From a virus, in the IMG/VR virus record IMGVR_UViG_3300028854_000012, positions 26,059-90,058 of that record: DNA of 64,000 bases; one strand, 5' to 3'. This document shows, one piece after another, positions 1,136-45,061 of the stretch. Position 1 is the first letter of the stretch. The number at the start of each line of letters is the position of its first letter. The position numbers were made by a program, and so were the translations under genes. The notes beneath the pieces are model-generated. The model saw only the letters and a list, made by a program, of their open reading frames with translations. It was not told the origin of the DNA and did no database searches.

Positions 1136-1576
1136 ATGCGAAATAAAACAGACTATGGGGAAGTATTAGTTAGTGGGTTAAGTTTTGGTGGAAGTGTGGA
1201 AGACCAGCCAACTAAACAGACTAGTTATATAAGTGAACCGGTGAAGGGTGATGGTTTAGTTCATCGTGCCTCTGGTCTTCATACCATACAGATTCATACG
1301 ATTAACACAACAGCCGATATTATGTTTGAGGCCACCCTTGATCGTGACCCATGTTCTACGGCATGGATTCCTATTTCTATTACAAATACTTCCACTGGAA
1401 ATATTTCCACTGTCCTACATTATGTTTATAATTCATCGGTTCCAAACATTCCTTCATCTGGTAAAACAATTGAACTTAATGAGTTTTTTACAGCACAGGG
1501 TCAATATGCTTGGATTCGGGTTAATATCAGTAATATATCAAATGGGATAATTGATAGTATTAAAGTAAGTTTCTAG
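1136..1576 (+). CDS. hypothetical beta-rich protein, possibly virion-associated
   Basis: GGAG RBS precedes ATG 1136 (preferred over TTG 1097); SEPVKGDG...GLHTIQ...WIRV motif. Confidence 0.55.
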   Translation: MRNKTDYGEVLVSGLSFGGSVEDQPTKQTSYISEPVKGDGLVHRASGLHTIQIHTINTTADIMFEATLDRDPCSTAWIPISITNTSTGNISTVLHYVYNSSVPNIPSSGKTIELNEFFTAQGQYAWIRVNISNISNGIIDSIKVSF

Positions 1577-1584
1577 GAAAATGA

Positions 1585-2865: not shown

Positions 2866-3776
2866 TGAATATAACACAAGAGCAAGTAGAATTTCTTCGT
2901 AAACAACATATACAATTTTCACTTCCTATGTATGGTGGAATGTGTCACGAATCACTTATGACTGGTATGGTAAAGTTTGCTATTTACGCCCAACGAATTG
3001 GAATGCCATTTTCAATCGATTCGATGTCGAATGAGTCACTTATACAACGTGCAAGATGCCATCTCACAGCGAAATTTCTCGATAATGCTGTAGCAACTCA
3101 TTTAATGTTTATTGATAGTGATATTGGATTTGAACCAGAACATATTTTTAAACTTGTTCTTGCCGATAAAGATATTATTGGAGGATTGTATCCAAAGAAA
3201 TCTATTCCGCCAGATTTTGTTGTTAATGTAAGTCCAGAAGCAGTCGATGAAGCTGGTCAGGTAAAAATGACGGATGGTTTGATTCCTGTTAGTAGATTAG
3301 GAACAGGATTTATGCTTATTAAACGAGAAGTATTTGAAAAGCATATGGCGGCGTATCCACAAACAAAATTTACTAATAATATTGGTCTTGATCCAAAATA
3401 TAATAAATGGTGTTATACTTTCTTTGATTGTGTAATTAGTCAAGATGAGAACCGGGAAATGCTTTCTGAAGATTGGTATTTTTGTGCAAAGAGTAGAGTA
3501 TTAGGAATTGACATTTTTGCCGATCCAACAATTCGTCTCAATCATAGTGGAACATTTGTATTTCCGGGTGATCCAACTGCTCTTTATAATAGCATGGGAT
3601 TGAAATTGGATACAAATCCACATTTAACTCCAAGAATTGCTATGAGAAAAGATGAAGTAAACGATCTTTCTTGTATCAACACAGCTAAACCAGATATGAA
3701 AGCATTTCAAGAATATTTGGATAAGAAAGTCCAAGAAAAAGAAAATGTAAATAATGGAAATATTACTATTCCATAA
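2865..3776 (+). CDS. GT-A fold glycosyltransferase-like protein
   Basis: NESLIQRAR, LMFIDSD (DxD), GTGFMLIKR, LSEDWYFC motifs. Confidence 0.75.
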   Translation: MNITQEQVEFLRKQHIQFSLPMYGGMCHESLMTGMVKFAIYAQRIGMPFSIDSMSNESLIQRARCHLTAKFLDNAVATHLMFIDSDIGFEPEHIFKLVLADKDIIGGLYPKKSIPPDFVVNVSPEAVDEAGQVKMTDGLIPVSRLGTGFMLIKREVFEKHMAAYPQTKFTNNIGLDPKYNKWCYTFFDCVISQDENREMLSEDWYFCAKSRVLGIDIFADPTIRLNHSGTFVFPGDPTALYNSMGLKLDTNPHLTPRIAMRKDEVNDLSCINTAKPDMKAFQEYLDKKVQEKENVNNGNITIP

Positions 3777-3784
3777 AGGTAAAT

Positions 3785-4207
3785 ATGATTAACAAAAATG
3801 ATACTTCTAACTATGCGGCAAAGAACTTGCCGCATAGAATTTGTAAGGACTGTAAACAACCTGTAAGTTATGATAACTATTATACTTCATACATTTGTTA
3901 TAATCATCCAAATGCAGGTTGGGAATGGACTAATCCTGTAGAAAATATTAAACCATGTGAACATAAACGGTGTTATATGCGTGATGGATATGATCATCCA
4001 ATATGTGATAACTGTGGTGCCGATAAACCCAAAGAACAATATGATTTCTCTAAAGCAGAGGTTGGTAAGTATTATATTCCAGAAGAAATTAAAGAATTTT
4101 TATGGAAAACAAGACCAGAATATTATGATATTAGCACAGATGCACATTATTCTGCATTAATTCATAATGAACAACTTTTAAAGTTATATAAGAAAATGAA
4201 GGAGTAG
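3785..4207 (+). CDS. hypothetical protein with CxxC pairs
   Basis: 140-aa ORF, AAGGT RBS, CKDC and CDNC. Confidence 0.55.
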   Translation: MINKNDTSNYAAKNLPHRICKDCKQPVSYDNYYTSYICYNHPNAGWEWTNPVENIKPCEHKRCYMRDGYDHPICDNCGADKPKEQYDFSKAEVGKYYIPEEIKEFLWKTRPEYYDISTDAHYSALIHNEQLLKLYKKMKE

Positions 4208-4210
4208 GTT

Positions 4211-4615
4211 ATGTTTGTATTACAACCATGGGTATCCACTGTTGGATTAAAGATGCAAAGTATTTTGTTAAGTGGATTAAGAGCGCCAGATTTTAAAACA
4301 AATGCAGTTAAAAAATGTGTTAGATATATGCGCGGCGTATGTCAGATTGATGCTGATCCTGCAAAACAGTCTTATATGCAAAAGATTCCTATTGATAAAA
4401 CACTGTTGGATGAAGCAGTTGATGAATTGGAATATTTAACAGTTCATTATGTTCATCATTTTGCAGATTCAATGAGAATTGTAGCAATATTTCATCCCGA
4501 TAAAGAAGTTAGGGATAATGTATTATATTTACATGAACAAATTGCGGTTGAATTATTTCATTTTAAAATTGAAACAGATGAAGAATTTTTGGAAAGGCAC
4601 AAGGATAAAATTTAA
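4211..4615 (+). CDS. hypothetical protein
   Basis: 134-aa ORF with GGAG/AGG upstream. Confidence 0.6.
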   Translation: MFVLQPWVSTVGLKMQSILLSGLRAPDFKTNAVKKCVRYMRGVCQIDADPAKQSYMQKIPIDKTLLDEAVDELEYLTVHYVHHFADSMRIVAIFHPDKEVRDNVLYLHEQIAVELFHFKIETDEEFLERHKDKI

Positions 4616-5158
4616 ATGAAGATAACCGAATTGAAACAAACATCTAAAATTGGTCATGTTTATTTGGACTTAGATGGGGTGATTGCTAATTGTGATCAGG
4701 GTATTGTAGATTACAATCATATAACTATGGAACAGCATAAAGCGGCTGGATGGGATAATGAATACTGGCATAATGTATTAGATAATGCTGATATTAAAGA
4801 ATTTTATATTAATTTAGAATTTGAACCAAATGGACAAGCATTGTTAAATTGGTTTATTAGTCATCATATTCCTTTTACTTTTTTAACACGACCATGCAAA
4901 GAGCCAAATACACAGGCTTGTATTGAAGGTAAGAAAATTTGGTTGAAAAGAAATGGATTGGGAGATATTCCTGTTTTATTTGAAAGAGATAAAGAAAAAT
5001 ATGCTGTTTCTTCTAATGGATTACCAAATATTTTAATTGATGACCACAGCGGAAATATAAGTAAATGGAATAAAGCTGGCGGTGTTGAAATTTTATATAA
5101 ATGGGAATTGTTTCCAGATGTTATAAAGAAACTTGAAAAATTATTGCTTAATCAATAA
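4616..5158 (+). CDS. HAD-family 5'(3')-deoxyribonucleotidase-like protein
   Basis: YLDLDGV motif I, GKKIWL, ILIDD motif IV, WNKAGG. Confidence 0.85.
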   Translation: MKITELKQTSKIGHVYLDLDGVIANCDQGIVDYNHITMEQHKAAGWDNEYWHNVLDNADIKEFYINLEFEPNGQALLNWFISHHIPFTFLTRPCKEPNTQACIEGKKIWLKRNGLGDIPVLFERDKEKYAVSSNGLPNILIDDHSGNISKWNKAGGVEILYKWELFPDVIKKLEKLLLNQ

Positions 5159-5166
5159 ATACTAAT

Positions 5167-5505
5167 ATGAAAATAAACGAAGTTATAATTGATAAGAAAG
5201 CTATATTGTTCACAGTTAAAAATGCTGTTAAAAATAGCGGTGCCGTTTTTAATAAAACCAATTCTTTTCAAGTTTTAGGAATCAATTTTTCTGTAGATGT
5301 TTCAGACGGAGAACCAAAATTATATATTGGCGATATGTTGTCCACTTCAAATATTGAAGGTGGAGCAAAAGGACAATGTATAAATTATCTTTATAATATT
5401 TTGTTGAGCAAAGAACGTGATAAAGAAGAACCATTGGATTTAGATGCATCGGTTGCGAATAAATTTTTTAAGCATGTTGAATCTCAAAAGTGGCGAAATA
5501 GATGA
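5167..5505 (+). CDS. hypothetical protein (MKINEV N-terminus)
   Basis: 112-aa ORF 5 nt after ATAAATA. Confidence 0.6.
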   Translation: MKINEVIIDKKAILFTVKNAVKNSGAVFNKTNSFQVLGINFSVDVSDGEPKLYIGDMLSTSNIEGGAKGQCINYLYNILLSKERDKEEPLDLDASVANKFFKHVESQKWRNR

Positions 5506-5640
5506 AGTCTATTAAATTAAGCTCTCTTTTCCTGATATAGACCGTGGTGAACATTGCCTTTAGGGAGCGGTATGTTAAAAGAAAGTCAGGTGCAGTATAG
5601 CCGAGGATTATATTATAATCTTAAAAACTGCCTCGGTAAT

Positions 5641-5648
5641 TATAAATA
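5641..5648 (+). promoter_or_regulatory. T4-like late promoter TATAAATA
   Basis: Exact T4 late consensus 5 nt before ATG 5654; same at 6236, 34666; also at 45027, 51163. Confidence 0.7.
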
Positions 5649-5653
5649 GTAGT

Positions 5654-6232
5654 ATGAAAATAACTGAATTATTGGAAGATTCCTCCGACACTATGACTTT
5701 TTGGCATGGTGGGAGGAATTTACAATTTAATCATATGGAAATGCTTGGAGCCAAGCATGGCCGATGGGAATATGGGCCGGGGCTTTATTTGACTAATCAC
5801 TACGAAACTGCAAGAAAATATGCTAAAGGTGGTGGTTCGACATATAAAGTTACGGTAGAAAAAGGAACGGATATTAAACAGATTACCATTGATCTTAAAG
5901 AAGTTATTGATTTTGTAAAAAGATATGTCATTGGAAAACATCGTTCTAATATTATTGATGATTTAAAAAACAATCTTAATAAACTTGGGATATTACAATT
6001 AGAAGTTTTAGTTAACCTTTGTGTGAACTATGATGCCTTATCTCCAAAAAATACTGTTGAACTAAGAAAGTTTTTAGTTAATCATGGTGCAGATTATGAA
6101 ATTGTTCGTGGATATGGTGGAAGAGATGAACATATTGCTATAATTTTTAACCCAACTAAAATTAAAAATATTGAGCCAATTAAAGCATCTGATGTTACGT
6201 TGGATCAATGGAAACTTCTTATAAACAAATAA
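5654..6232 (+). CDS. ADP-ribosyltransferase-fold-like protein
   Basis: FWHGG..GPGLYLT..ARKYA..YKV pattern typical of ART-like domains of phage polyvalent proteins. Confidence 0.55.
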   Translation: MKITELLEDSSDTMTFWHGGRNLQFNHMEMLGAKHGRWEYGPGLYLTNHYETARKYAKGGGSTYKVTVEKGTDIKQITIDLKEVIDFVKRYVIGKHRSNIIDDLKNNLNKLGILQLEVLVNLCVNYDALSPKNTVELRKFLVNHGADYEIVRGYGGRDEHIAIIFNPTKIKNIEPIKASDVTLDQWKLLINK

Positions 6233-6248
6233 TCTTATAAATACTACT

Positions 6249-8765
6249 ATGAGATTGCGACATTTATTTGAGGCATTAACACTACGAAAAGAGCTTGTAA
6301 TTTATTCGGGTTCTTTTAGTCCGTGGCATCTCGGTCATTCTGCGGTATATAAATATCTCAATAAAAAATTCCCTCAAGCTGATATTTTTGTTGCATCGTC
6401 TTCAAAAAAGACGGTGGATCGTTCATTTTCGTTTGATGATAAAAAATTTCTTGTCTCTCAAGCTGGAATTCCAGAAGATAAGTTTGTAGAAGTTATCGCT
6501 CCTTATAAAGCAAATGAAATCACGAAGAATTATGATCTAAATAATACTGTTTTAATTTTTGCTATCAGCAGAAAAGATAAAGATCGTTTGGCTCGTCCAA
6601 ATAAGAAAAATGGAGAAGCTCCATATTTTTTGCCATATATTAATTCTGAAGAATGTGAACCATTTTCTAAACATGGATATTTTATAGTAGTTCCTACCGT
6701 TAAGTTTTCATTATTGGGAAAATCAATAAATTCCGCAGCGCAAATCCGTGAAATGTATAAGAATTCAAATGATAGAACCCGTTTGAAAATATCTAAATCT
6801 CTGTATCCTAATTCAAATAAAATTCAAGAAATTAAAGATATTCTTGATACTATTCTTGTGTCATCAACGCTTATTGAATATTCAGGTGTTGTTTCGGATA
6901 AGGTTGATGACGATGGTTGGATTCTCCCAAATGGCGAATTTATACCCAATGGTTATCCTACTGGTTATGGTGGACATAGTTCAACGCTTTATAATTATAA
7001 AATTAAATCATATGATGAAGCCTACGATAAAGGATGGGTTCATTTTATAATTAGGGATAATAACGGGATATTAGATACCGACAATGCAGAGGTAGAAGAT
7101 AACAAAAATATTGATACTTTTGTTCGTAATAGATTAAAAGATTTCCCATATGTGACATTAACTATCTGGCCAAAAAATGACAATGAACGTAAAACAAAAA
7201 AATTTGAATGGAATGGTAGATATTTTAATCAAGTTAATAATACAAAAGTTTATGAGTCATTAGATAACTATAATACTATTACCAATTTTGGTTGGTTACT
7301 CCCCAATGGAACTTTTTTAGAAGGATGGTCACACTCTAAGATTCTTAGAAGAGAAGGCTTGAAGGATTATATTGATGCCTATGAATTGGGATGGCTTCAT
7401 TTTCAATTTGGTAATAATTATAGTAGAAGCGGTAGTATTATTTCATCTTATGGATTATTTGGAACAAACCAAAGTCTTCAAGTAGTCCAAAAAACAGTAA
7501 AAATCGGAGCAAATAGAATATCAAAAAATATTGATAATATCTATATTCAATGTTCGGAAGGTATATTTAGATATGATAGAGATTATTTTACATTTAAAAA
7601 AGTTAGAAATACTGTTCTTGAATCGATAATTACAGAAAATGAGAACATTACAAAAGATGGTTGGTTTACTCCTAACGGCAAATTTGTTGAAAATCGTTTT
7701 GGTAGTGGGCATTTTGGAACATTGCGTAACGTTGGTATAGATTCTTATGATGAAGCCTTTGATTTAGGGTGGGTTCATTTTTCTGGAACTAATAATCCAC
7801 ATGGTGTGTGTAACTTGCAAATAGGAGTTTCTTATTCAGACAATATAGAATTTATTAATAATATTGCTAAAAAACTTGAACATAATTTTCCAATTATTAA
7901 ATTAATAGAAAAATGGTATAAAGTTTTTAATAGATATGAATGGGATGGAAAAGATTTTAGATCGGTAAATCGTAATAAGTTTAATGAATCAGTTATAACA
8001 GAAAACATTAAACAAGATGGTTGGCTTCTTCCATCTGGTCAATTTATTCCTAATCCTTATGGGTCTGGACATTGGGACACTTTAAAGAAAAAAGGATTTA
8101 AATCTTATAGTGATGCATGGCAACGTGGCTGGATGCATATATCATTTTTTAATGATAGTTGTATTATATCAGCATATTCAGAATTGGAAGAAATGGAACC
8201 ATTGTTAACAAAAATTGCAAAACAAACAGAAAAGGTTTATCCAATTATACGAGTTGATTGTGGCTCTGGACGTAATTATAAGAAATATGAATGGACAGGA
8301 AAAGAATTTGTTCCTATTAAAATAAAAATGTTTAATGAATCACCAGATTTCAATTATTCGATGTTTCATAATCGAGATAAAGAATTAAAAAATGTTAAAT
8401 TTAACTGTGTTGTTACTCGTAATAGTGGTGGTGGAACTTATTTAGAAGTTATGGCAATGCTGGATTTAGAACAAATTGGTTATATACATATTTTATATGA
8501 TAAAACAGCTTTCAATTATTCAATTGGTATGGTTAGGAGAAGTGATATTGAATATGAATGGAAGGGAACCGGTCTTGGACAAATGTTATATGATAAAGCA
8601 ATTCATTATGCAAAAGAAAAAGGTTGTAAATATTTATGGTCAGATACAGAACGATCAGTAAATGCAGAAAATGCTTGGAAAAGATTATCGAAGAGATACC
8701 CAATAACTTTTGTAACAAGCAAATCAGGAATGAAATATTATCAAGTTGATTTGGACAAAATATAA
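6249..8765 (+). CDS. multidomain protein: HIGH-type nucleotidyltransferase-like domain, four repeats of an unknown domain, GNAT domain
   Basis: YSGSFSPWHLGH; four GW-x-x-P-x-G-x-F...H...Y-x-x-A-x-x-x-GW-x-H repeats; C-terminal WKGTGLGQMLY...SD..RS..A..AW. Confidence 0.75.
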   Translation: MRLRHLFEALTLRKELVIYSGSFSPWHLGHSAVYKYLNKKFPQADIFVASSSKKTVDRSFSFDDKKFLVSQAGIPEDKFVEVIAPYKANEITKNYDLNNTVLIFAISRKDKDRLARPNKKNGEAPYFLPYINSEECEPFSKHGYFIVVPTVKFSLLGKSINSAAQIREMYKNSNDRTRLKISKSLYPNSNKIQEIKDILDTILVSSTLIEYSGVVSDKVDDDGWILPNGEFIPNGYPTGYGGHSSTLYNYKIKSYDEAYDKGWVHFIIRDNNGILDTDNAEVEDNKNIDTFVRNRLKDFPYVTLTIWPKNDNERKTKKFEWNGRYFNQVNNTKVYESLDNYNTITNFGWLLPNGTFLEGWSHSKILRREGLKDYIDAYELGWLHFQFGNNYSRSGSIISSYGLFGTNQSLQVVQKTVKIGANRISKNIDNIYIQCSEGIFRYDRDYFTFKKVRNTVLESIITENENITKDGWFTPNGKFVENRFGSGHFGTLRNVGIDSYDEAFDLGWVHFSGTNNPHGVCNLQIGVSYSDNIEFINNIAKKLEHNFPIIKLIEKWYKVFNRYEWDGKDFRSVNRNKFNESVITENIKQDGWLLPSGQFIPNPYGSGHWDTLKKKGFKSYSDAWQRGWMHISFFNDSCIISAYSELEEMEPLLTKIAKQTEKVYPIIRVDCGSGRNYKKYEWTGKEFVPIKIKMFNESPDFNYSMFHNRDKELKNVKFNCVVTRNSGGGTYLEVMAMLDLEQIGYIHILYDKTAFNYSIGMVRRSDIEYEWKGTGLGQMLYDKAIHYAKEKGCKYLWSDTERSVNAENAWKRLSKRYPITFVTSKSGMKYYQVDLDKI

Positions 8766-11470
8766 TGATTATTGAAAATTTTATAAATGAATTATATAAC
8801 GATAAGCCACTTAAAAATGCTCTTGTAGCATTGAAGCCAGAAATTGTGCGAAGAGTTCAACGGGAATATGATAAGTGGAGAGGTGGAATGGGTATTTGTG
8901 ATTATATTGCACGGACGATTCGTTATGTCATAGAAGAAGATATTCCAGATGCAAAAGTAAGTATTATAGATAAAGAAAGTTTTCATTATTGGGTAAGAGT
9001 GTGGTTAGGAAAAGAATGTTACGATGTTGATATTCCATTCGGAAAATATGAAAGATATAACTATAAAAATGATAAATTTATAAAAATACCAAATGTAGTA
9101 TTTAATATTCATGATATTTTCATTTATCGAACCTCCACATCATTTTTAAAAGCACCATGGGAAATAAAAAAATCATACGTTCCACACAAAGATGATCAGT
9201 ATTATCATTTAAATGATCATTTACTTGTTAAAGAATCTCCAGATTTTAATTATACAAGATTTAATAACAGAGATGAAGCTATTAAGAAAATAAAATTTAA
9301 AGAAGTTGAGAGTAATTATCTTGGAGAATATTGTAATATTACTGCTTTTTATAAAAATGATGATGTGGGGGTTATAAATTTATTTAAATATAAACCAGAT
9401 TCAGAAGTAATAGTTGAATCTATAGAAATTAAACCACGTTGGAAAGGGACAGGATTGGGGCAGTTGTTATATGAAAAGGGTATAGCATACGCAAAGAAAA
9501 ATGGTTTTGAAAATTTCTGTTCAGATACAAATAGGTCAGATGAAGCAAATAAAGCGTGGCAAAGATTGTCTCAACGATATCCAGTGAGATTACTGAAAAT
9601 AAAAATTAGGGGAGCGATGAAAAATCGTTATGAGATTGATCTTAGTAAAGTTCCTTTAAAAGAATCAATAATATTTGAAGAGCCGGATTTTGGATATAAA
9701 ACCTTCAACAACAGAGACGAGGAATTAGAACAATTAAAATTTAGATATGAGGTTAAAGCATCATTAATAGCTATCACAATTTATAAAAATTCTGATGATA
9801 GTATTAATCAACAATATCCATTAGGAGTTATTGAAGCTATAAAAGATTCTTTATGTATTACAATTGAAGGGGAAGATCAATCTAAAGTTAATTCGTGGTT
9901 TATTACCGTTGCTAGTATACCAAATGATTGGAGAGGAACTGGTTTAGGACAGATATTATATGAAAAAATGATTATTGCGGTTAGAAGTGTTGGTGGAAAA
10001 TATTTATGGAGTGATGTTAGCTTAAATAAAAATTCAAGGTCTGCTTGGGAAAGACTTTCCAAAAGATTTACAGTATTAAAAATTAAAAATAGATATAGAA
10101 TGACTATACCAGAAAAACAAAAAAGATTGAGAATTAAAGAATCGCCAGATTATGGGTATAAAATCTTCAACAACAGAGAAGAAGAAATTTCTAAACTGAA
10201 ATGGGTTGTTATTCATAATGAAGATGGAATTATTGTAAAAGCAGTTGAAGAGAATAGATATAATAGACCAAGTGGTGATAGTATATATGGAAATTATGAA
10301 GGTTTGATAGTTGCAAGACCTATTCCAAAAGATGCAACAATTGGAAAAGGAATTCAAATAACTTTAAGTAAATTACATAATACACAAACAAAAACTTGGC
10401 AAAGCACCGGTTTGGGTCAAATGCTATATGATCGGATTATTCAAGAAGCTAAGAAAGCTGGTTATGATTTTATAACTAGTGATTTCGATAGATCATTAGA
10501 TGCCAATAAAGCATGGAAGAAAATATGTCAACGATATAATGTAACAAAAGTAAAAGCATTTGATGGTGATAAGTATTTTAGAATAGATTTGGAAGATGTT
10601 CCAAATAAAATAAATGAAGATATCGGTAATATTGTAAAAACAAAATCATTATATTATGGAAGTGCGGCGCGTCCAAAAACAAAAACAGAGTTGCTTATCA
10701 ACAACAGGGTTAAAGGAGAGATTTATTTAAGTTCACCTATGGATTTTGATAACGATGATTTGGACTGGTCATTTGATGTTCCTATTGAAAAAACAGAAAT
10801 GATAACCTACGTTGATATTGATCCTATCTATCGTAATAGAGGTTATGGAAAATTATTATATAATGCTGCTATGAAGAATGCAAAACAACGCGGAATAAAA
10901 ATAATTATAAGTGGTATGCCACAATCATCAGATGCATTACGGGTATGGAATAGTTTAGCTAGAGAAGGAAAAGTTAAGAAGAATCATGATTGGGGAATGT
11001 ATATCGATTTAGAGAATATTTCAGATAAAATAAATGAATCACCAGATTTTGGTTATCAACAGTTTAATAATAGGGATGTTGATTTTAAAAAAATTAAATT
11101 TGAAACTGAAATGAATGCAACTGGGTTTTTTATTTTTTCATATTTTGATGGTCGTGATGCCGGTCATATTGGATGCACTATTAGAGAAAAACTTTTTCCG
11201 CCACCAAAAACATATAAAGTCAGTCAATTAGTTATAATACAGAGTGTTGATACAGAAAAAGAATGGAGAGGAACAGGTTTAGGACAAACTCTTTATGATA
11301 TGGCAATTAAGAAAACTAAAGAACTTGGATATAAATATTTTAGAAGTGACATTTCATTATCAAATGATGCATTTAATGCTTGGAAAAAATTATCACAAAG
11401 ATATCCTGTTACAAAATATTTAACAAGTTTAGGAAAACCATATTTTGAAATTGATTTAGAGAATATTTAA
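8765..11470 (+). CDS. multidomain protein: putative Cys-His-Asp N-terminal domain plus five tandem GNAT acetyltransferase domains
   Basis: GICD..HYWV..YDVD N-terminus; five acetyl-CoA motif A copies (WKGTGLG, WRGTGLG, WQSTGLG, YRNRGYG, WRGTGLG). Confidence 0.8.
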   Translation: MIIENFINELYNDKPLKNALVALKPEIVRRVQREYDKWRGGMGICDYIARTIRYVIEEDIPDAKVSIIDKESFHYWVRVWLGKECYDVDIPFGKYERYNYKNDKFIKIPNVVFNIHDIFIYRTSTSFLKAPWEIKKSYVPHKDDQYYHLNDHLLVKESPDFNYTRFNNRDEAIKKIKFKEVESNYLGEYCNITAFYKNDDVGVINLFKYKPDSEVIVESIEIKPRWKGTGLGQLLYEKGIAYAKKNGFENFCSDTNRSDEANKAWQRLSQRYPVRLLKIKIRGAMKNRYEIDLSKVPLKESIIFEEPDFGYKTFNNRDEELEQLKFRYEVKASLIAITIYKNSDDSINQQYPLGVIEAIKDSLCITIEGEDQSKVNSWFITVASIPNDWRGTGLGQILYEKMIIAVRSVGGKYLWSDVSLNKNSRSAWERLSKRFTVLKIKNRYRMTIPEKQKRLRIKESPDYGYKIFNNREEEISKLKWVVIHNEDGIIVKAVEENRYNRPSGDSIYGNYEGLIVARPIPKDATIGKGIQITLSKLHNTQTKTWQSTGLGQMLYDRIIQEAKKAGYDFITSDFDRSLDANKAWKKICQRYNVTKVKAFDGDKYFRIDLEDVPNKINEDIGNIVKTKSLYYGSAARPKTKTELLINNRVKGEIYLSSPMDFDNDDLDWSFDVPIEKTEMITYVDIDPIYRNRGYGKLLYNAAMKNAKQRGIKIIISGMPQSSDALRVWNSLAREGKVKKNHDWGMYIDLENISDKINESPDFGYQQFNNRDVDFKKIKFETEMNATGFFIFSYFDGRDAGHIGCTIREKLFPPPKTYKVSQLVIIQSVDTEKEWRGTGLGQTLYDMAIKKTKELGYKYFRSDISLSNDAFNAWKKLSQRYPVTKYLTSLGKPYFEIDLENI

Positions 11471-11481
11471 AGAGGTATAAT

Positions 11482-11915
11482 ATGCAAAATTTAGAAATGA
11501 TAATGAAAATAGCATCTGCAACGCTTTTTAGTTTTTATCTTAAAAGTCATATGATACATTTTAATATTATTGGACCAAATTTTTTCAATATCATAAACTC
11601 ACGGATGAAATCTGGAAAGATACTATTGAAGAATTTGATGGAATTTCTGAACAGATTAGAGCATTGGATATTATTGCTCCCGCATCATTATCAGAATTTC
11701 AAGAATTATCTCAAATTGAAGATATGATAAAACCGATAGAGGCAAAAGCAATGCTTTATGAACTTCTTCTTGATAATGAAAAATTAATAGAGCTTCTTAA
11801 AGAAGCAAACTCATTATCTGTTCCACACCCCGGACTTGGTAATTTTTTACAATCTTTGATTGATAAACATGAAAAAATAGGATGGTTCCTTCGTGTAACA
11901 GTAAAAGGAATTTAA
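11482..11915 (+). pseudogene. dps: Dps/ferritin-like protein, frameshifted (probably a sequencing error)
   Basis: HFNIIGPNF then FQYHKL..E..D..SEQIRAL..DKHEKIGWFLR in another frame; one T missing from the T-run at about 11580-11585. Confidence 0.8.
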
Positions 11916-11917
11916 AA

Positions 11918-12655
11918 ATGAAAATTAAAGAGCTTCTCCAAGAATCAACCATACCACAGAATGTAATTACTATTCTTCGAGAATTGATGCCTGTTTTGAA
12001 ACCGGGATTATCAACACCATTAATTAAAATAGTAAATCATATAAATCCAAAATATTTAGGTATGGATAGTTGGGGTTATAGAATTAAAGGTGGAGTTGAA
12101 TCCTGTGATACATTTACTACCATATATCTTCAAAAATATATTCTTACAGATGAAAAAACATTAAAGAGGGTTTTAGCGCATGAGCTTTGCCATCATGAAA
12201 TTTCACTTACAATAGATACTGAACGATTTAATATATTGGGATTTAAAAGATATATGTCTTATTGTAAATCCCATAGAAATGAAAGTCATGGAAAAGATTG
12301 GAAGGAAGTTGCAAATAGATTTAATGCAATATATGGAAAAGATTTTGTAACTAAAAACTCAGATATAGATTATATTTTAGATACTTCTCTTATGAAACCT
12401 TTTTATGTTGTATTACAAGATTATAAAGGAAGAAAATGGTTTGCAAGCACTGTTAGGTTTGGAGATAAACAGAAACAATATTTATCAAGACAATATTCTC
12501 CTTGGAAAATGTTTAAAACTAATGATCGATCTTTTATGACAAAATATTTTGGTGTTGGGTGGTGTAAAGCCCCACAAACTCATATAGAAGATAAATGGGA
12601 TGATCTTTGGAAGAGCGGCGAAGTCATATTATCTGGAAATTTGGATAAAGAATAA
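11918..12655 (+). CDS. SprT-like zinc metalloprotease
   Basis: LAHELCH (HExxH) and HGKDWK; start at MKIKELLQE. Confidence 0.7.
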   Translation: MKIKELLQESTIPQNVITILRELMPVLKPGLSTPLIKIVNHINPKYLGMDSWGYRIKGGVESCDTFTTIYLQKYILTDEKTLKRVLAHELCHHEISLTIDTERFNILGFKRYMSYCKSHRNESHGKDWKEVANRFNAIYGKDFVTKNSDIDYILDTSLMKPFYVVLQDYKGRKWFASTVRFGDKQKQYLSRQYSPWKMFKTNDRSFMTKYFGVGWCKAPQTHIEDKWDDLWKSGEVILSGNLDKE

Positions 12656-12673
12656 ATATAGTATAGGTGAGTT

Positions 12674-13174
12674 ATGAAAATTTCTGAACTTTTAAAAGAG
12701 ACTGCCTCTTGTGGTTCAACAAGTGCAGGTTCAATTGCGACTGTTAATGCAACAGGAACTCCACCCAAAGGTCAATTCTTTGGAGGAGACCCATCTAGTT
12801 CAATTTATGGAGTTATACATAAAAATAGAAAAAACAGAAAGAAACCAATTAAAGAAGGTTTAACTAAAAATTCGCGTGGGACATATCTTTTTATATATAA
12901 TCCTGATGTTGGTTTGTTTATTCGTAAAGGAGAATTTTCTAATCATGGTAGATTATTTGGAAAAGTATTTGATAGAGTATATCCAAAAATACAATTTGAT
13001 GAATTTGATCGCGGTTATATAGTAGTTTCTATCGATGATAAGAGTTTACTAATAATGCCAACAAGTGCTCGTGAATATTTTGATTATGACATAGAAAAAA
13101 TATTTGAAAATAAATATTCTAAGAAATATAAAATAAAAATGTCGAATCGTTTTAGAAGTTATTATTTAAATTAG
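12674..13174 (+). CDS. two-module hypothetical protein; N-terminus resembles mature capsid N-terminus
   Basis: LKETASCGSTSAGSIATVN vs capsid LRESATTGSTSAGNIATLN; second half paralogous to 13182 ORF. Confidence 0.7.
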   Translation: MKISELLKETASCGSTSAGSIATVNATGTPPKGQFFGGDPSSSIYGVIHKNRKNRKKPIKEGLTKNSRGTYLFIYNPDVGLFIRKGEFSNHGRLFGKVFDRVYPKIQFDEFDRGYIVVSIDDKSLLIMPTSAREYFDYDIEKIFENKYSKKYKIKMSNRFRSYYLN

Positions 13175-13181
13175 AGGTAAT

Positions 13182-13847
13182 ATGAAGATAAAAGATATAA
13201 TTCGTGAAAGTGTCGATATTGGGAAGGGTGTCCCTCCAGAAGAATCAAAAAAATTCACAACATTTTTGTGGATATATCATCGAGATACTGGATTAGTTGT
13301 TCGTAGAGGACGATATGCAATGCATTCCACTATATTTTACGATATGATTCGTGATTGGCGTATGCGTTTTGATGATTTTGATCGAGGTTATATAAAACTT
13401 GATCCAAAAACTAAAACAATGTATGTAATGCCCACCGATCCACGAGAATATTTTGTGTATGATGTTAAAAAAGTATTTGAAAAAGAATTTCCAAAATGGC
13501 ATATCGAATTATTTGAAAAATGTAAATATGCCTTTAATCCCGGAAACAGATTACGCGATTCTGTTAAAGAAGCAATAAAAGAAACAATATACCTAATTCA
13601 ATATAAACTTCGTTTCTACACACCAGAAGATATACCGGATATTAAAATACAAGTATTAAATAGATTTAAGGAAACGATTGAAAGGGAAAGTTATCGAAAG
13701 AATATGATAGTTAATACAGAAATTAAAGATGAGATAGTATACGTAAAATCATCTTATGAAGGTTATAAAATAGAATTACCAAAAGTATTATCTAATAAAA
13801 ATACAATTAAAGATTTTAAAGTAACATCGGTGGCAAATGAAAAATAA
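13182..13847 (+). CDS. hypothetical protein (MKIKDIIRE)
   Basis: GAGG RBS; shares FD-x-FDRGY..MPT..REYF domain with previous ORF. Confidence 0.7.
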   Translation: MKIKDIIRESVDIGKGVPPEESKKFTTFLWIYHRDTGLVVRRGRYAMHSTIFYDMIRDWRMRFDDFDRGYIKLDPKTKTMYVMPTDPREYFVYDVKKVFEKEFPKWHIELFEKCKYAFNPGNRLRDSVKEAIKETIYLIQYKLRFYTPEDIPDIKIQVLNRFKETIERESYRKNMIVNTEIKDEIVYVKSSYEGYKIELPKVLSNKNTIKDFKVTSVANEK

Positions 13848-15033
13848 AACAATAATTGGATCGACCAAACCGTTTCGTGAACCGGGTGTCTTAAAGGCAA
13901 CTGACAAAGTTAAATCAGTTGGAAAGGTTCTTGGTGGTAATCCAAAAAAAGGAACATTGAGTAAGAAATTTTTTGGTTGTTCAGTTATTAAAGATATGAG
14001 TAATAAAAAAATATTGGATGAAGAAATTAATTCGTTTTCTAAATTACATGAGCTAAATGATCATGAAGGTGCAGCTTTAATATTACAGAATAAAGAAGTT
14101 TTTATTGGAATATGGCATGCAGAATTAAGAAAAGAAGCAAGTATACAATATGGTTATAAAATGGCATCTCTTTCAAACGGCGCAATTAGAGTTAGATATA
14201 CTGGTAGTGTTGAAGGGTATGGTGATGGAACAGTTATAGAATTTGAAAAGAAAGATATTAAAGTAATTTCAAATATTATAGAAGTTATAGATAATATTAA
14301 TTCTCCGGCTGATATGTTTTTATTGGAATATACCGGGCCATTGGGTTATTGGTCTGCTAAAGGAAATTCATCAGAAGTAATAGAAAAATTAGAAAAATGG
14401 GGAAATCCAGATAAACCATCTATGTCTACTAGTGTATCATATTGGCATAATTCTAATTTAGATGAATCAAAAGATAAAATTTTAGAATATAATTACAATA
14501 ATGATACACCAACACCAATGATTGGTGGTTTAGAACTTTTAAAACAAATTAATATACGAAATAGTGCAGCATTAATATCGGCGGATAACAATGTTTATTT
14601 GGGAGATGAACATTATTTACTACGAAGATATTTTAGAAGCGTTGGTATTAATCCCGAACTTCAAACTGGTGTAGTTAGAATTAGATTCGAAGGAACCGAA
14701 GGATTTTATAATACAACTATTGAATTTGCTAAAAAAGATACAGAAACAATTCAGCGCGTGTTTACAGCATTGGATTATGTTGCTGCACCAAATGGAACAT
14801 ATGTAGTTGAATATACTATGTCAAATGTAAGAAAGGATTTTAGGGGAACATCTGAAGAAATAAAAAAAGAAATAGAAAAATGGTTAAATCCAGTAGCGCC
14901 ATCTTATAGTAGTAATATGAATTATTGGAGAACACAGGAATCTAAAAAATCTCTCGGTAGATTATTGGATGAAGCAAAACAAAAAAGAGAATTAACAAAA
15001 AGATTGCAGGAAGAATTTGGTAAATTTGTATGA
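13837..15033 (+). CDS. hypothetical protein with two internal repeats
   Basis: AALI..V..G..H..LR..R.R..G..EG....IEF.KKD..EYT..G.S.E...EKW.NP..PS occurs twice. Confidence 0.7.
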   Translation: MKNKTIIGSTKPFREPGVLKATDKVKSVGKVLGGNPKKGTLSKKFFGCSVIKDMSNKKILDEEINSFSKLHELNDHEGAALILQNKEVFIGIWHAELRKEASIQYGYKMASLSNGAIRVRYTGSVEGYGDGTVIEFEKKDIKVISNIIEVIDNINSPADMFLLEYTGPLGYWSAKGNSSEVIEKLEKWGNPDKPSMSTSVSYWHNSNLDESKDKILEYNYNNDTPTPMIGGLELLKQINIRNSAALISADNNVYLGDEHYLLRRYFRSVGINPELQTGVVRIRFEGTEGFYNTTIEFAKKDTETIQRVFTALDYVAAPNGTYVVEYTMSNVRKDFRGTSEEIKKEIEKWLNPVAPSYSSNMNYWRTQESKKSLGRLLDEAKQKRELTKRLQEEFGKFV

Positions 15034-15515
15034 GATTAATTGAAATGTTTTCTGATTCAGATGAGATGGCTAAAAAATATCCTGTAACTTTAAATAATTA
15101 TGATACTAAACAAATTATTAGTGATTTGAAAACGTTGTCCATAGAAAAATTTACATGGATAACCTCACCGTTAAAATACTCAGATTATATGAATTGGGGT
15201 AATATTCCATCTGAAACTAAAATGGATACATTGATAAAACATAATGAATTTGAATTTAAAAATATAAATCCGCATACATTAATAACTTATCAGAAAGAAG
15301 TGTCAATTGAAACTATTTTATTAGCTATGAAAAATATAAATATGGGACAAGATAATAAAAGATCATATGAAAGATTTCCAATAATTAAACAGTGGAATGG
15401 GAAAAATTATTTAATAGACGGAAATCATCGAGCCGTAGCAGCACTGTGGTCAAATAGATTACTACCTTGTAGATGTTTAAATATAGAAATATTTTTTGAT
15501 GTGGAGCCATTTTAA
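15030..15515 (+). CDS. ParB/Srx-like domain protein
   Basis: PII...YLIDGNHRAVAA motif. Confidence 0.7.
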   Translation: MRLIEMFSDSDEMAKKYPVTLNNYDTKQIISDLKTLSIEKFTWITSPLKYSDYMNWGNIPSETKMDTLIKHNEFEFKNINPHTLITYQKEVSIETILLAMKNINMGQDNKRSYERFPIIKQWNGKNYLIDGNHRAVAALWSNRLLPCRCLNIEIFFDVEPF

Positions 15516-15516
15516 T

Positions 15517-16359
15517 ATGAGGCTGAACGAGTTGGCAAGAAAAAAGAAAATTGTTACTCCATATGATCCTGTTGAAGCCGCGCGTGAAAGCCTTGAATGG
15601 TATAAAGAAGATGGTATTAAAAGATGTCCAAATAATACATTACAACTTTTTGTTCCTCGAAAAATAGAACGATATGCAACAAAGAAAGAACGCGAAGAAC
15701 ATATTTTACGAGATAGAGCCAAATATGCATATGACGATAATGGTGATATGATTCCTCAATATAGAGATTGGGTCAATAATGTCCACGAATCTATAATAGA
15801 TGAAGGTGCTCCGGTGCTTGCTGGTGGAAATCCATTAATTGGTGGAAGCAAACCTTTAAGTGCGTTATTATGGACAAGCACAGCTAAAAAATTAGATAAT
15901 GGTAAGTGGACAAGTGACTGGAATAATTTTATCCAAGGTGGAAATCTCGGTAGTTCCATACCATCAAAAATTGGATACTTATATAAAGTTCTGCCAAATA
16001 CATTAGTATATGAATTAGATAGTGCTCAAGATGCATTAATTATATATAAAATTTTTAAAGATTTGGGAAGACCTAATAAAGCATTAGATGATCCAAATAA
16101 TTGGGAACGAACAAGTGAATTTTATAGGAATAGTAATGATACAGATATAAGTATTATACAAAAAGATTTTCCGTGGCCAGATTTGTCAGCTAATTTCGAT
16201 TGTATACATCATTGGGGTGGTAGAAATAGTTTTAATTATGATTCTTTTACTGGTGGATACGATGTGGAAAGTTCGTGTTTTTTCAAACCAAATCAACTTG
16301 AATTGCTTGGACAAGTTCCACTATGGACGCCCGAAGATGATAAAGAAGATGATTTTTAA
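15517..16359 (+). CDS. hypothetical protein (MRLNEL N-terminus)
   Basis: Start at ATG 15517; KP..LWTS..W...GYDVES motif. Confidence 0.65.
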   Translation: MRLNELARKKKIVTPYDPVEAARESLEWYKEDGIKRCPNNTLQLFVPRKIERYATKKEREEHILRDRAKYAYDDNGDMIPQYRDWVNNVHESIIDEGAPVLAGGNPLIGGSKPLSALLWTSTAKKLDNGKWTSDWNNFIQGGNLGSSIPSKIGYLYKVLPNTLVYELDSAQDALIIYKIFKDLGRPNKALDDPNNWERTSEFYRNSNDTDISIIQKDFPWPDLSANFDCIHHWGGRNSFNYDSFTGGYDVESSCFFKPNQLELLGQVPLWTPEDDKEDDF

Positions 16360-17135
16360 ATTTTATGTCTAATCACTCCTTGAATATAACCTAAATCTTT
16401 AAAAGATGAAAATTCTACTGGATTAATAACCTTGCAAATTCCTAATGATACGTTTTTAATATATATTTTTCCAGTGTTAGTGTGTGCTTGTTTCTTATTT
16501 GATTCTTCTTTTCTTATTCTTCCTTGAATAAATCCTTGAATTTCATATATAGGCCAGTCATTTAATTTTATAAATTTTGCTGTTTTTAAAAGCGCATGAT
16601 AAATATGAATTCTATTTTTACTTGATTCTGAAACCTTTTCTTTAGTGGAAAGCGATGATTTTTTCTTACCTAAAGAAAATCCCAAATTTATATAATATTG
16701 TAATTCTGATAGTTTAATTGGAAATTGAACTACTCCATTATTAATCCATTTTCTACCAATTTTTGATTTAGATTTTCTGGAACGAGTTATTGCGCTATTT
16801 GGAAATGGACCAAGGGGAACACTTTCGTGTTGATTATACCACATTGGATTATTGGCGGCTTTGATTTTTGTAAGAAATTTAGATTCATATAATAAACATT
16901 GTTTGGAATTTGTAAAAATTTTTCTAACTTCTACAATAAAAGAATCTTTGCCTTCTATTTTAATAATATTCTTTACAATTTTACTGGATGAAAAATATTT
17001 AGTCCATAAATCAGAAGGTAGACAGCCTATTCTTGTTTTGCTTCCAGCATATCTTTTTCCATCTGAAATATGTGTTAAAATATAAAAGAACGGTGTTCGA
17101 TCTGTTGCGGTGAATAATTCTGAATAAATAGGCAT
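16356..17135 (-). CDS. GIY-YIG-like (Seg-type) homing endonuclease
   Basis: FYILTH...RYAGSK..YFSSS..E..YN; C-terminal NUMOD-like repeats (KWINNG, GF-x-x-G). Confidence 0.75.
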   Translation of the reverse strand: MPIYSELFTATDRTPFFYILTHISDGKRYAGSKTRIGCLPSDLWTKYFSSSKIVKNIIKIEGKDSFIVEVRKIFTNSKQCLLYESKFLTKIKAANNPMWYNQHESVPLGPFPNSAITRSRKSKSKIGRKWINNGVVQFPIKLSELQYYINLGFSLGKKKSSLSTKEKVSESSKNRIHIYHALLKTAKFIKLNDWPIYEIQGFIQGRIRKEESNKKQAHTNTGKIYIKNVSLGICKVINPVEFSSFKDLGYIQGVIRHKI

Positions 17136-17200
17136 ATGCTGTTGCTCCTTAAAAGCGATAGAATTGGTGGGACAGTGAATCCGCGACCAATAGTATTTAT
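17136..17200. ncRNA. conserved two-hairpin motif at endonuclease 5' end (copy 1)
   Basis: Same architecture as 31547-31612 with compensatory stem changes. Confidence 0.6.
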
Positions 17201-17249
17201 CTTTTTGAAATAAAAATTATGTTGTTGAAAATAATGAACTTATTTTTAG

Positions 17250-17278
17250 TTGACAACAGGACAAAACTTTGATATACT
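17250..17278 (+). promoter_or_regulatory. sigma70-type early promoter
   Basis: TTGACA-17-TATACT with extended -10 TG. Confidence 0.85.
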
Positions 17279-17313
17279 AATATTGTAGTTGAGAAAAAGA
17301 AAGGAATACTAAA

Positions 17314-17658
17314 ATGTTCACTCCATTGACCCCGCGCCAAAAGACCTTGCTTGTGAATAATGTCTTGTCTGCATGTAAGGACATTAGAACGCTAAAGAAA
17401 AATGGTTACCATTTTTTATATTTGTCAAGTGGAATGATAGCCCATTATAATCGTGGAGGATTCATTGATTATTATATGGATAATGATCTTGCCACTGATA
17501 TTATCAATAATGCGCAAATGAATCAGTGGAATAATTTTAGGTTCGGTGATCGGGATTATGATTATATGATGGAAAAAAAGGATATTTATAATCGTATTCT
17601 CGCTGGTCTTGGTATAGTTGATTTGGGAGAACATATTCCAAATAAGTTTTGGTTTTAA
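17314..17658 (+). CDS. hypothetical early protein
   Basis: AAGGA RBS, directly after early promoter. Confidence 0.7.
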   Translation: MFTPLTPRQKTLLVNNVLSACKDIRTLKKNGYHFLYLSSGMIAHYNRGGFIDYYMDNDLATDIINNAQMNQWNNFRFGDRDYDYMMEKKDIYNRILAGLGIVDLGEHIPNKFWF

Positions 17659-17661
17659 CAT

Positions 17662-17925
17662 AATTTCAATTGGGAGGTCGGCTTAAAGGTAGCCATCCTT
17701 TAAAGAGTGAGTCGTGATACAGGGATTGCGGAAGTTATATCGGAATGATATGCAAGGGCAATCTTGGGTGCAGTTGTTTAGACCGATTGCCAAGATTAAC
17801 TGCATTACAACCAAACACTATTGGCACGTGGATAATAGTTGATACGTTTTTTGCTACGCAAACTATTGTTGGTCTGATAAGGCAAGATATGGACTCTTTG
17901 GTGTAGAAACACACCAATTGAAATT
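17662..17925 (+). ncRNA. structured RNA resembling the 23S rRNA L11-binding domain (H43/H44)
   Basis: 12-bp closing stem AATTTCAATTGG/CCAATTGAAATT; GGAGGTCGGCTTAAAGGTAGCCATCCTTTAAAGAGTG...GTGTAGAAACACAC aligns to the rRNA consensus. Confidence 0.7.
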
Positions 17926-45019: not shown

Positions 45020-45061
45020 GTTTCTGTATAAATACTATTGACAATATTATGAGGTAAAACT

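Follow-up and report, generated by a model that had tools for sequence, protein, structure and literature searches.

A candidate island of head-loaded, protease-processed cargo genes in an uncultured jumbo phage of the T4 superfamily

The stretch of DNA described here, the window, is the terminal 64 kb of a 90,058-base virus contig (IMG/VR record IMGVR_UViG_3300028854_000012; our record G000). Between positions 4616 and 16359 its plus strand carries an island of 11 intact genes and one broken gene, and the products of ten of the intact genes open with a similar short peptide, the tag. We favour, with moderate confidence, the view that this island encodes cargo that is loaded into the phage head, processed there by a protease and injected, a combination of capsid targeting of the T4 type with polyvalent effectors. 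At the level of sequence we show that the tag and a motif found at internal domain junctions are interchangeable and that both co-vary by lineage with the N-terminal motif of the capsid protein; this comparative evidence, strong though indirect, weighs most in our reading.

Under this proposal the block would be a hyperplastic island of genes for head-internal proteins, ejected with the DNA of an uncultured jumbo phage of the T4 superfamily. An N-terminal peptide of 5-9 residues, M-[KR]-[IL]-x-E-[LI]-[LI]-x-E, would take each product into the prohead scaffolding core, like the capsid targeting sequence (CTS) of T4, and a prohead protease of the S77 (gp21) type would remove it by cutting after the Glu in (L/I)-x-E. 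Two of the products, p838 and p901, would be polyproteins in which h-x-E/S (h, hydrophobic; the slash marks the predicted cut), often doubled as E/S-I-I-x-E/, lies in a flexible linker before every module. Maturation would release separate proteins of 14-23 kDa, namely a nucleotidyltransferase (NTase), four DGW domains, an N-domain and six GNATs resembling protein acetyltransferases, and once delivered to the host along with the DNA these would act, as infection begins, on its proteins or nucleotides. We infer that the products are packaged, cleaved and ejected, and likewise what they act on. A first-pass annotation, made from the letters of the window, had read the block in a similar way; that interpretation is partly supported, its predictions having held where sequence could bear on them.

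The N-terminal tag and the junction motif

The tag follows the pattern M-[KR]-[IL]-x-E-[LI]..E and opens 10 of the 13 open reading frames (ORFs) of the block; all ten of the N-terminal peptides quoted in the first-pass annotation are present at the genes to which it had assigned them (Table 1). When the regular expression ^M[KRLIN][LIVM].[EDNH][LIFVM] was applied to ORFs of at least 60 amino acids (aa) throughout the 90-kb contig, it matched 10/13 block ORFs and 1 of the 76 others (Fisher one-sided 6e-10). On a slightly more permissive test, matches in phAPEC6 (7/594 ORFs) and in Vibrio phage 2.275.O (5/487) are scattered; the tagged ORFs of 2.275.O include one of 861 aa at 219836-222421, one at 17071-17406 and NVP2275O_441. 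Each of the ten tags, and hence 10/11 intact block ORFs, has an x-E site whose P3 residue is L or I among its first 9 positions; the tags thus contain the strict motif L/I-X-E after which T4 gp21 cleaves, the CTS propeptides being 10-19 residues long (PMC9026906). In T4, an Asp in the final CTS position prevents processing and leaves targeting intact (PMC9026906). By inspection the window tags are similar to N-termini in the T4 record, where IPII and IPIII start MKTYQEFIAE, IPI starts MKTFKEF.. and gp24 starts MAKINELLRE/S, and they share E-hydrophobic-hydrophobic-x-E with IPII and IPIII.

The codons that specify the tags vary (AAA, AAG, AGA or AGG; ATA, ATT, TTG, TTA or CTG; five Leu codons), and therefore it is the peptide that selection has conserved and not a DNA cassette. 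A DNA recombination cassette and an RNA motif were each considered as the source of the shared starts and rejected because the codons differ. Plain paralogy or chance, with recent duplicates sharing their first codons, is an account to which we give almost no weight. It can draw on the paralogy of p166 and p221, judged by eye from their translations, and on that of the GNAT units. The tagged proteins span at least eight unrelated folds or families, however; the tag codons differ, the tag is concentrated in the block to the extent given above, and syntenic islands in other phages retain it despite different gene content. Simple paralogy of the tagged genes was rejected because the folds downstream of the tag are unrelated.

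The sole tagged ORF of the contig outside the block encodes p75, a small acidic protein in the head module. Tagged homologues follow the portal gene in Vibrio phage 2.275.O (L017, 5013-5255) and in phAPEC6 (145165-145392 of its record). Mass spectrometry detected 62 proteins in the phAPEC6 virion, and the p75 homologue is missing from the inspected part of the table that lists them; bubblegrams of phAPEC6 and 121Q heads are reported to give a sign of an internal protein body (PMC7247149).

Motifs of the same kind recur inside the two largest products of the island. The p838 protein unites disparate domains in one polypeptide (NTase, four DGW domains, GNAT), and p901 is mainly a GNAT array with one N-domain. 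The ten boundary motifs that had been quoted for them could all be located, and they form the first residues of each repeat unit (Table 1); hydrophobic-x-E stands at 10/10 repeat boundaries of the two proteins, the predicted cuts in p838 falling after residues 210, 336, 458, 580 and 697. The junction Glu (E3 in alignment A1) is one of 10 columns that do not vary across the six GNAT units (31-43% identity to the first unit), and it is among the 14 invariant columns of the four DGW repeats, which are 24-33% identical. Several of the sites are doubled as E/S-I-I-x-E.

An enrichment of the motif at boundaries had been put forward as a check on the reading, and it emerges when the motif is sharpened to h-x-E-S. 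In p838 and p901 together this sequence occurs 9 times against 2.14 expected (0/1000 shuffles reach 9), with 8 of the 9 at repeat boundaries. In all eleven block proteins it is found 13 times against 4.33 expected (1/1000 shuffles), and of the remaining four occurrences two close a tag, one opens the second repeat of p398 and one is at p280 residue 89.

The placement of the motifs in linkers had been a second expectation. An AlphaFold (AF2) model of residues 570-838 of p838, built on a 46-row alignment, has a mean predicted local distance difference test score (pLDDT) of 88.6 and two confident domains. Its only stretches under pLDDT 50 are segment residues 1-5 and 124-129, and the second of these (residues 693-698 of the protein, KMFNES) holds the FNE/S site within a 20-residue coil between a DGW domain and the GNAT. 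The junction in this model is an exposed linker, the sole linker of low pLDDT in the two-domain prediction, as expected. A single-sequence AF2 prediction of p901 was unusable (pLDDT 31.7).

Two junction dialects and related islands

To set the window's junctions among their relatives we used a profile of the six GNAT units, which gave 871 matches at E <=1e-3 in 1.84 billion representative proteins; what follows concerns the best 150 of the 871. Among the matches, the proteins that contain the GNAT family range from 86 to 5005 aa. Anchored on the module start xPDFGY, 83 leaders could be tallied in 66 external proteins; 82 of the 150 proteins have no leader definable by regular expression and were left out of the tallies, as were the window's own P0001 and P0016. 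The P1 residue is E in 44 of the 83 leaders, with a hydrophobic P3 (I, L, V, M or F) in 44/44. It is A in 34 others, with K at P3 in 31/34, and five leaders are of neither kind. None of the 66 proteins mixes E-type with A-type leaders.

In proteins that begin with a GNAT, the N-terminal tag ends where an internal junction would, as in one protein that has MKLCELFE/SPDFGY at its start and KKVTE/SPDFGY inside, and P0004 and P0006-P0008 carry a tag before the first GNAT and h-x-E before the second. The tag opens 26 of the 32 complete E-type proteins as against 1 of the 26 A-type proteins; many of the latter start M-R-N-x-L-L-x-K-x-A, with K-x-A within the first 20 residues in only 9/26. When the GNAT leaders are masked, the rest of the E-type sequence is still enriched in h-x-E-S (36 observed, 15.4 expected, z 5.8) but not in KTA, and the A-type sequence is enriched in KTA (84 observed, 10.4 expected, z 23.9) but not in h-x-E-S. 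The dialect is not confined to GNATs. The SprT-like, ParB-like and p901 N-domain modules belong to separate tagged ORFs in the window and are internal, after h-x-E, in P0151, P0028 and P0013 (the SprT-like module in P0151, the ParB-like module in P0028 and P0013); a 1564-aa protein of L004 also has an embedded SprT-like module. Among relatives that begin with the NTase, 12/12 NTase ends found by regular expression have h-x-E within 12 residues, followed by varied domains; the 5 of 17 such proteins that have no end definable in this way were not counted.

The capsid protein follows the same division. The major head protein of A-type phages (phrog_2522) was found in 4/5 records, and of its five ORFs four have the N-terminal sequence ..GQLLKTA/GG and the fifth has ..LLKSA, although these amount to about one observation because they are close relatives of each other. 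An S77 protease is present in 2/5 E-type records, including one that is 90% complete, and in 0/5 A-type records, including a 100%-complete genome of 456 kb; as candidates for the A-type capsid protease, S77, S78 and S78_2 were each found in 0/5 records. A GC-rich lineage of uncultured large phages (G006-G010; L006-L009, L013, L057-L071) has giant proteins of up to 5005 aa among the matches, which start MRNxLLQKTA and have K-T-A before their modules; it is in this lineage that the capsid protein starts ..GQLLKTA/GG.

These patterns bear on whether the large proteins are cut at all. The tagged proteins might be packaged and lose their tags while the large ones stay whole, with the internal h-x-E persisting as a relic of fusion or as a conserved flexible linker. 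The junctions do resemble truncated tags (S-I-I-T-E beside M-K-I-T-E), and modules do shift between ORF-initial and internal positions, as fusion and fission would have them do. In the part of the literature that covers SPN3US, the prohead-protease cleavages found, self-cleavage of the protease apart, give N-terminal propeptides only (PMC10052503), and the N4 virion RNA polymerase (vRNAP) and some polyvalent proteins are described as delivered unprocessed (PMC5512222). The junction E is nevertheless invariant in units that have diverged to 24-43% identity, it lies at pLDDT under 50 in a predicted exposed linker, where a prohead protease would be expected to reach, and the other lineage has K-T-A in its place, matching its own N-termini and its capsid protein. 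Relics are disfavoured because an unselected relic would not track the dialect of its lineage, and we regard an uncut set of large proteins as unlikely. In going beyond the window we are more tentative, and put at a little under an even chance the idea that polyvalent effectors in general are genuine polyproteins whose junctions follow the cleavage dialect of the protease that matures the phage's own capsid. The same tripeptide would then end the tag, mark every domain junction and end the capsid propeptide, as h-x-E/S in S77 phages and as K-T-A/(S or G) in the GC-rich lineage of huge phages.

The island (HYPERPLASTIC) occupies the same genomic slot in IMG/VR loci L001-L003 and L004-L005, where its content differs and the tags are kept. 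A conserved gene with a product that starts MNITxEQ precedes the slot, and in L004-L005, the only loci that reach its far side, the p280 homologue and a DNA polymerase gene follow it. Its content in L001-L005 includes tagged proteins of 1005, 1564 and 586 aa and a 1153-aa NUDIX/GP88 relative of p398, and L001 and L004 each have a tagged p180 homologue in the corresponding place. At 343-11818 of L016 there is a further island, with at least 8 consecutive ORFs whose products start MKSHEFITE, MRSSEFITE or MKLFEFLSE, the pattern being M[KR]S[HS]EFITE and similar; these tags are closer still to that of T4 IPII and IPIII. Searches elsewhere returned little. Megablast of the block against 50,697 phage records gave no match, a locus search with the whole of p901 gave no confirmed related locus, and tblastn of p838 and p901 found only the NTase in Microcystis phage Mel-JY01 and in the uncultured phage LR756508 and the GNAT in Tunturiibacter phage Tunturi_5.

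Head maturation, processing and expression of the island

The contig has a G+C content of ~30%. Its major capsid protein is 71% identical to the homologue in Vibrio phage 2.275.O and 66% identical to those of GAP32, CBB, Serratia phage BF and related 350-kb phages; because of these identities the contig is, by this marker, a fragment of an uncultured jumbo phage of the T4 superfamily, in the branch of RaK2, GAP32 and 2.275.O and not in the Tevenvirinae. Four head genes of the T4 type lie in the window (portal, prohead protease, scaffold-like protein and capsid protein). The gene that had been named as the prohead protease does encode a Peptidase_S77, and its DHP and GVSSRG motifs align with T4 gp21 and supply the His and Ser that we take to be catalytic. 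A TATAAATA box lies upstream of it at 45027-45034.

Several features tie the tag to the maturation of the head. Four of the five h-x-E motifs of the capsid protein fall within its first 42 residues, and the predicted propeptide (42 aa, 49834-49959) ends QLRE/S. In a MAFFT alignment this site coincides with the end of the T4 gp24 N-terminal peptide MAKINELLRE/S, itself nearly a window tag, and gp24 presumably loses exactly these 10 residues. Its cleavage by gp21 is annotated in the T4 record. The scaffold-like protein is rich in h-x-E (28 sites, 7.7 per 100 aa) and is the positional homologue of a 'coil containing protein' encoded before the capsid gene of 2.275.O. The tag of p166 is followed by a stretch (residues 7-30, 12692-12763) that is 58% identical over 24 aa to capsid residues 40-63 (49951-50022; pairwise E 1.5e-5). 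This copy spans the predicted maturation site together with some 20 residues at the start of the mature capsid protein, and it could be a mimic of the protease site or of a capsid-binding surface.

The island brings a peptidase of its own, and an SprT-like zinc peptidase, either p245 or the embedded copies, might process the polyproteins in the head or after injection, leaving the prohead protease with no part at the internal sites. The p245 protein exceeds the Pfam cut-off and has HExxH, modules like it are embedded in related polyproteins (P0151 and the 1564-aa protein of L004), and domain release mediated by an MPTase was proposed by Iyer et al. 2017 (PMC5512222). The junction motif, however, falls in the specificity class of gp21-type proteases (PMC9026906). 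It is also found at the N-termini of the capsid and scaffold proteins, which in T4 are substrates of the prohead protease; p838 and p901 contain no peptidase domain of their own in a Pfam scan, and many tagged E-type relatives have no SprT module. We judge processing by the SprT-like enzyme very unlikely and retain the prohead protease as the candidate.

The first-pass annotation had noted that several tagged ORFs lie directly after (T)ATAAATA. This is the case for three genes: the exact TATAAATA precedes p192 and p838, and ATAAATA precedes p112, each 5 nt before the ATG. A AATAAATA sequence lies 19 nt upstream of p166. In the window TATAAATA alone is not enriched (15 found, 13.8 expected), and the arrangement ATAAATA-N5-ATG is (8 found, 1.1 expected; 0/100 shuffles reach 8). 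The eight sites are at 5155-5169, 5642-5656, 6237-6251 and 34667-34681 and at four further positions, and in four of them the ATG is a gene start without a Shine-Dalgarno sequence, which suggests leaderless or near-leaderless late mRNAs at these genes. At 34679 a gene with this box and spacing encodes an untagged product. A sigma-70 scan of the block gave fewer sites than shuffled sequence (77 against 90.9), with nothing notable on the plus strand.

The expression signals invite an explanation of the shared N-terminus that has nothing to do with the capsid. It could serve the translation of leaderless or poorly led late mRNAs by way of a favoured MK(I/L)xE start, or act as some other signal for sorting or turnover, with the proteins at work in the producing cell. 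This explanation fits the three tagged genes that lack a Shine-Dalgarno sequence and have a late-promoter box 5 nt upstream of the start codon, and A-rich second codons are common in an AT-rich genome, where many untagged genes start MK too. Most tagged genes, however, have no box, and some have ordinary leaders of the AGGAG or GGTG kind, while the gene at 34679 combines box and spacing with an untagged product. The tag also recurs at internal domain junctions, where initiation is irrelevant, its end co-varies with the junction motif and the capsid N-terminus, and p75, the one tagged ORF elsewhere, is encoded among the head genes. A role confined to translation or sorting in the producing cell is therefore, in our estimation, decidedly improbable.

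Several observations weigh against the head-loaded, processed cargo that we favour. The tag expression was written post hoc, after the block had been seen, and p398 and the ferritin-like gene have no tag (p398 and the two halves of the frameshifted gene are the three untagged ORFs of the block). The exact TATAAATA precedes only two island genes, and the island is ~29 kb from the head genes. Loose [LIVFM]-x-E sequences are no scarcer than expected, whether in block proteins (79 observed, 72.8 expected) or elsewhere in the contig (434 observed, 360.7 expected), one copy of h-x-E-S falls inside a GNAT unit (p901 residue 216) and one loose motif falls in a helix of the p838 model, so that more than the tripeptide must be needed to specify cleavage. 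At P3, half of the primary junctions have V or F where T4 has L or I. The ten junctions come from two paralogous repeat families and thus count as about two or three independent observations within the window, and their placement in linkers rests on one confidently modelled junction. The island has no counterpart in the cultured phages searched, phAPEC6 and 2.275.O among them, and no homologue in a phage with a published virion proteome. The SprT-like peptidase is an alternative processing enzyme within the island itself. The cleavages described in SPN3US weigh on the same side, and because they yield only N-terminal propeptides, polyprotein processing by such a protease would be new.

Island contents, known parallels and implications

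Table 1. Coordinates of island genes, junction sites and other features in the window
Feature	Position	Strand	N-terminus or sites	Assignment and remarks
p180	4616-5158	+	MKITELKQ	HAD-type 5'-3' deoxyribonucleotidase; phrog_2643 E 1.5e-18, over threshold
p112	5167-5505	+	MKINEV	ATAAATA 5 nt upstream (5155-5161)
p192	5654-6232	+	MKITELLE	ADP-ribosyltransferase-like; TATAAATA at 5641-5648, 5 nt before ATG
p838	6249-8765	+	MRLRHLFE	Candidate polyprotein: HIGH-type NTase, four ~120-aa 'DGW' repeats, GNAT; TATAAATA at 6236-6243
p838 junction codons			6870-6878 LIE; 7248-7256 VYE; 7614-7622 VLE then ITE; 7980-7988 FNE then ITE; 8331-8339 FNE	
p901	8765-11470	+	MIIENFINE	Candidate polyprotein: 150-aa N-domain, five GNAT units; Acetyltransf_1 E 5.9e-27 in 3 stretches
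p901 junction codons			9227-9235 VKE; 9656-9664 LKE then IFE; 10133-10141 IKE; 10610-10618 INE; 11030-11038 INE	
Ferritin/Dps-like gene	11482-11915	+	untagged	Frameshifted; intact 145-aa homologue at L001:12588-13025, Ferritin E 7.5e-11
p245	11918-12655	+	MKIKELLQE/S	SprT-like zinc metallopeptidase, HExxH; PF10263 29.2 bits against 25.6-bit cut-off
p166	12674-13174	+	MKISELLKE/T	Tag followed by a copy of the predicted capsid maturation site
p221	13182-13847	+	MKIKDIIRE/S	N-terminal half a paralogue of the p166 core
p398	13837-15033	+	untagged	Two internal repeats; LDE/S (14458-14466) opens the second
p161	15030-15515	+	MRLIEM	ParB/sulfiredoxin-like (weak); PF23719 24 bits, below 27-bit cut-off
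p280	15517-16359	+	MRLNEL	Internal double site VHE/SIIDE, residues 89-96; tagged homologue at L004:15114-15965
Portal	38420-40123			Portal_T4 E 4.8e-95
p75	40156-40383	+	MIITEMFQDE..	Small acidic tagged protein directly 3' of the portal gene, position of T4 gene 67 (prohead core)
Homing endonuclease	43313-44965			550 aa; phrog_3339 E 1e-116; just upstream of the protease gene in the structural region
Prohead serine protease, gp21-type	45062-45706	+		Proposed processing enzyme; Peptidase_S77 (PF03420) E 4.4e-23, 82.2 bits against 27-bit cut-off; phrog_207 E 6.6e-55
Scaffold-like protein	48726-49814	+	MLDALAPLLE/S	Coiled-coil; phrog_10922
Major capsid protein	49834-51018	+		Gp23 family; Gp23 Pfam E 2.5e-95, match from residue 54
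620-aa protein	51188-53050			DUF7487 E 5.7e-29; weak Mom-like C-terminal match, E 5e-4, under cut-off

The domain calls of the first-pass annotation fared unevenly. Those of GNAT, cytidylyltransferase-like NTase, SprT-like peptidase and 5'-3' deoxyribonucleotidase stood, all being above their thresholds (in p838, CTP_transf_like scores 22.6 bits and Acetyltransf_1 23.5 bits). The call of p192 as ADP-ribosyltransferase (ART)-like falls below the Pfam cut-off (PF18760 ART-PolyVal, E 1.1e-3, 20.1 bits against 31.2) and has backing from Atlas structure matches with template-modelling (TM) scores of 0.81 and 0.61, in whose clusters 12-29% of the members are ART-PolyVal or AcrIF11_ADP_ribosyl. The ParB-like call for p161 is weak, with Atlas structures at TM 0.45-0.54 to ParBc_2 and ParB_N clusters, and PDB sequence searches with p192 and p161 returned nothing under E 0.05. 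A Foldseek search with the two-domain model of p838 identified only the GNAT half, whose fold comes closest to those of VipF, a Legionella effector, and of acetyltransferases that modify protein N-termini or lysines; the DGW domain had no match. There was no Pfam or PHROG match to p112 and, by tblastn, no match to p280 in cultured phages.

The real starts of p245 and p280 are internal ATGs, at 11918 in the ORF 11882-12655 and at 15517 in the longest ORF, respectively. The untagged p398 has a different conserved start, MKxK..GSTKP, shared by homologues in L001 (1153 aa, with NUDIX, GP88 and DUF4116) and L004. In the ferritin/Dps-like gene the frameshift lies near codon 33-37, since residues 1-37 and 33-144 of the L001 homologue match different frames of the window (tblastn). 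The copies in the window and in L001 are both without a tag, and the gene, despite its location within the island, probably does not belong to the cargo set.

The portal, protease and capsid genes are on the same contig as the island but 22-34 kb from it. The island's neighbours are giant ORFs on its upstream side, not assigned to a function, and replication genes. At 1549-17826 of the contig, 8-25 kb upstream of the window start, there are three ORFs of great length (2938, 1515 and 810 aa). An endonuclease related to the one encoded beside the protease gene adjoins the capsid gene of G007, and TATAAATA at 51163 precedes the 620-aa DUF7487 gene.

The nearest parallel to the island is in T4, where IPI, IPII, IPIII and Alt likewise have a short N-terminal peptide that starts MK and ends (L/I)-x-E (MKTYQEFIAE in T4, MKISELLKE and MKIKELLQE here). 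Both phages encode an S77 prohead protease, and in both the content of the locus varies while the tag is kept (PMC3012670; PMC9026906). As with Alt, one island member resembles an ADP-ribosyltransferase. In contrast, the T4 internal proteins are small, basic, DNA-associated and single-domain, three to a phage, whereas the window has at least 10 tagged products of 112-901 aa, mostly enzymes, with the cleavage motif repeated at every module boundary in the proteins of 838 and 901 aa; the window tag is one residue shorter than the T4 CTS.

The second parallel is with the polyvalent proteins (Iyer, Burroughs, Anand, de Souza and Aravind 2017; PMC5512222), in which unrelated enzymes (GNAT, ART, ParB-like, zincin/SprT-like, NUDIX, NTase) are joined and which are predicted to be packaged and injected. 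A GNAT beside an ART is described there in gammaproteobacterial phages and in an uncultured marine phage (PMC5512222). Domain release is ascribed in that work to embedded MPTase peptidases, whereas the window has its SprT-like module as an ORF of its own, and only relatives have it embedded. Passages of PMC5512222 that treat these proteins describe no N-terminal tag, junction motif or prohead-protease role, and the word prohead occurs once, in the reference list.

Large enzymes of the phage P1 Dar system (DarA, DarB, DdrA, DdrB, Hdf and Ulx) are loaded into the head by N-terminal signals and injected against host defence, and DdrB is processed before packaging (PMC5512222). The P1 head and protease system is a different one, and the Dar proteins are not homologous to those of the window. 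We know of no h-x-E junction motif among them. The head-protease motif of phiKZ, 201phi2-1 and SPN3US is S/A/G-x-E. In these giant phages a protease related to gp21 (gp175, gp245) cuts many head proteins after the Glu of a three-residue motif, and in SPN3US Ser is favoured at P1' and propeptides have several redundant sites, which parallels the doubled sites here (PMC9026906; PMC10052503). The cuts that are described for SPN3US, self-cleavage apart, remove N-terminal propeptides and do not divide strings of enzymes (PMC10052503), and the proteins are not homologous to those of the island.

Variable internal proteins with a CTS are thus already known from T-even phages (PMC3012670; PMC9026906), as are polyvalent proteins predicted to be packaged and injected (PMC5512222). 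What appears to be new is the union of CTS tagging with polyvalent effectors in a jumbo lineage of the T4 superfamily, the repetition of the tag or cleavage motif at every module boundary, and the lineage-specific match of tag, junction and capsid N-terminus. In the open-access papers searched, supplements excluded, we found none that links polyvalent proteins to prohead-protease junction motifs.

Injected proteins are known from only a few model phages, and they are the phage's first answer to host defences because they are active before any phage gene is expressed. If our reading of the island is true, the cargo that uncultured phages inject could be recognised by a simple sequence rule, a tag and a junction motif that match the capsid propeptide, and the way in which very large polyvalent proteins become separate enzymes would be explained. 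The island's targeting tags and cleavable linkers would also be natural tools for putting proteins into phage heads. A large family of GNATs, so far unexplored, comes into view as well; its members resemble protein acetyltransferases, with up to six diversified copies in a phage and predicted delivery to the host. Should the wider idea hold that polyvalent effectors are polyproteins in the dialect of their own capsid-maturation protease, the specificity of that protease and the full injected cargo of a phage would be readable from its genome alone.

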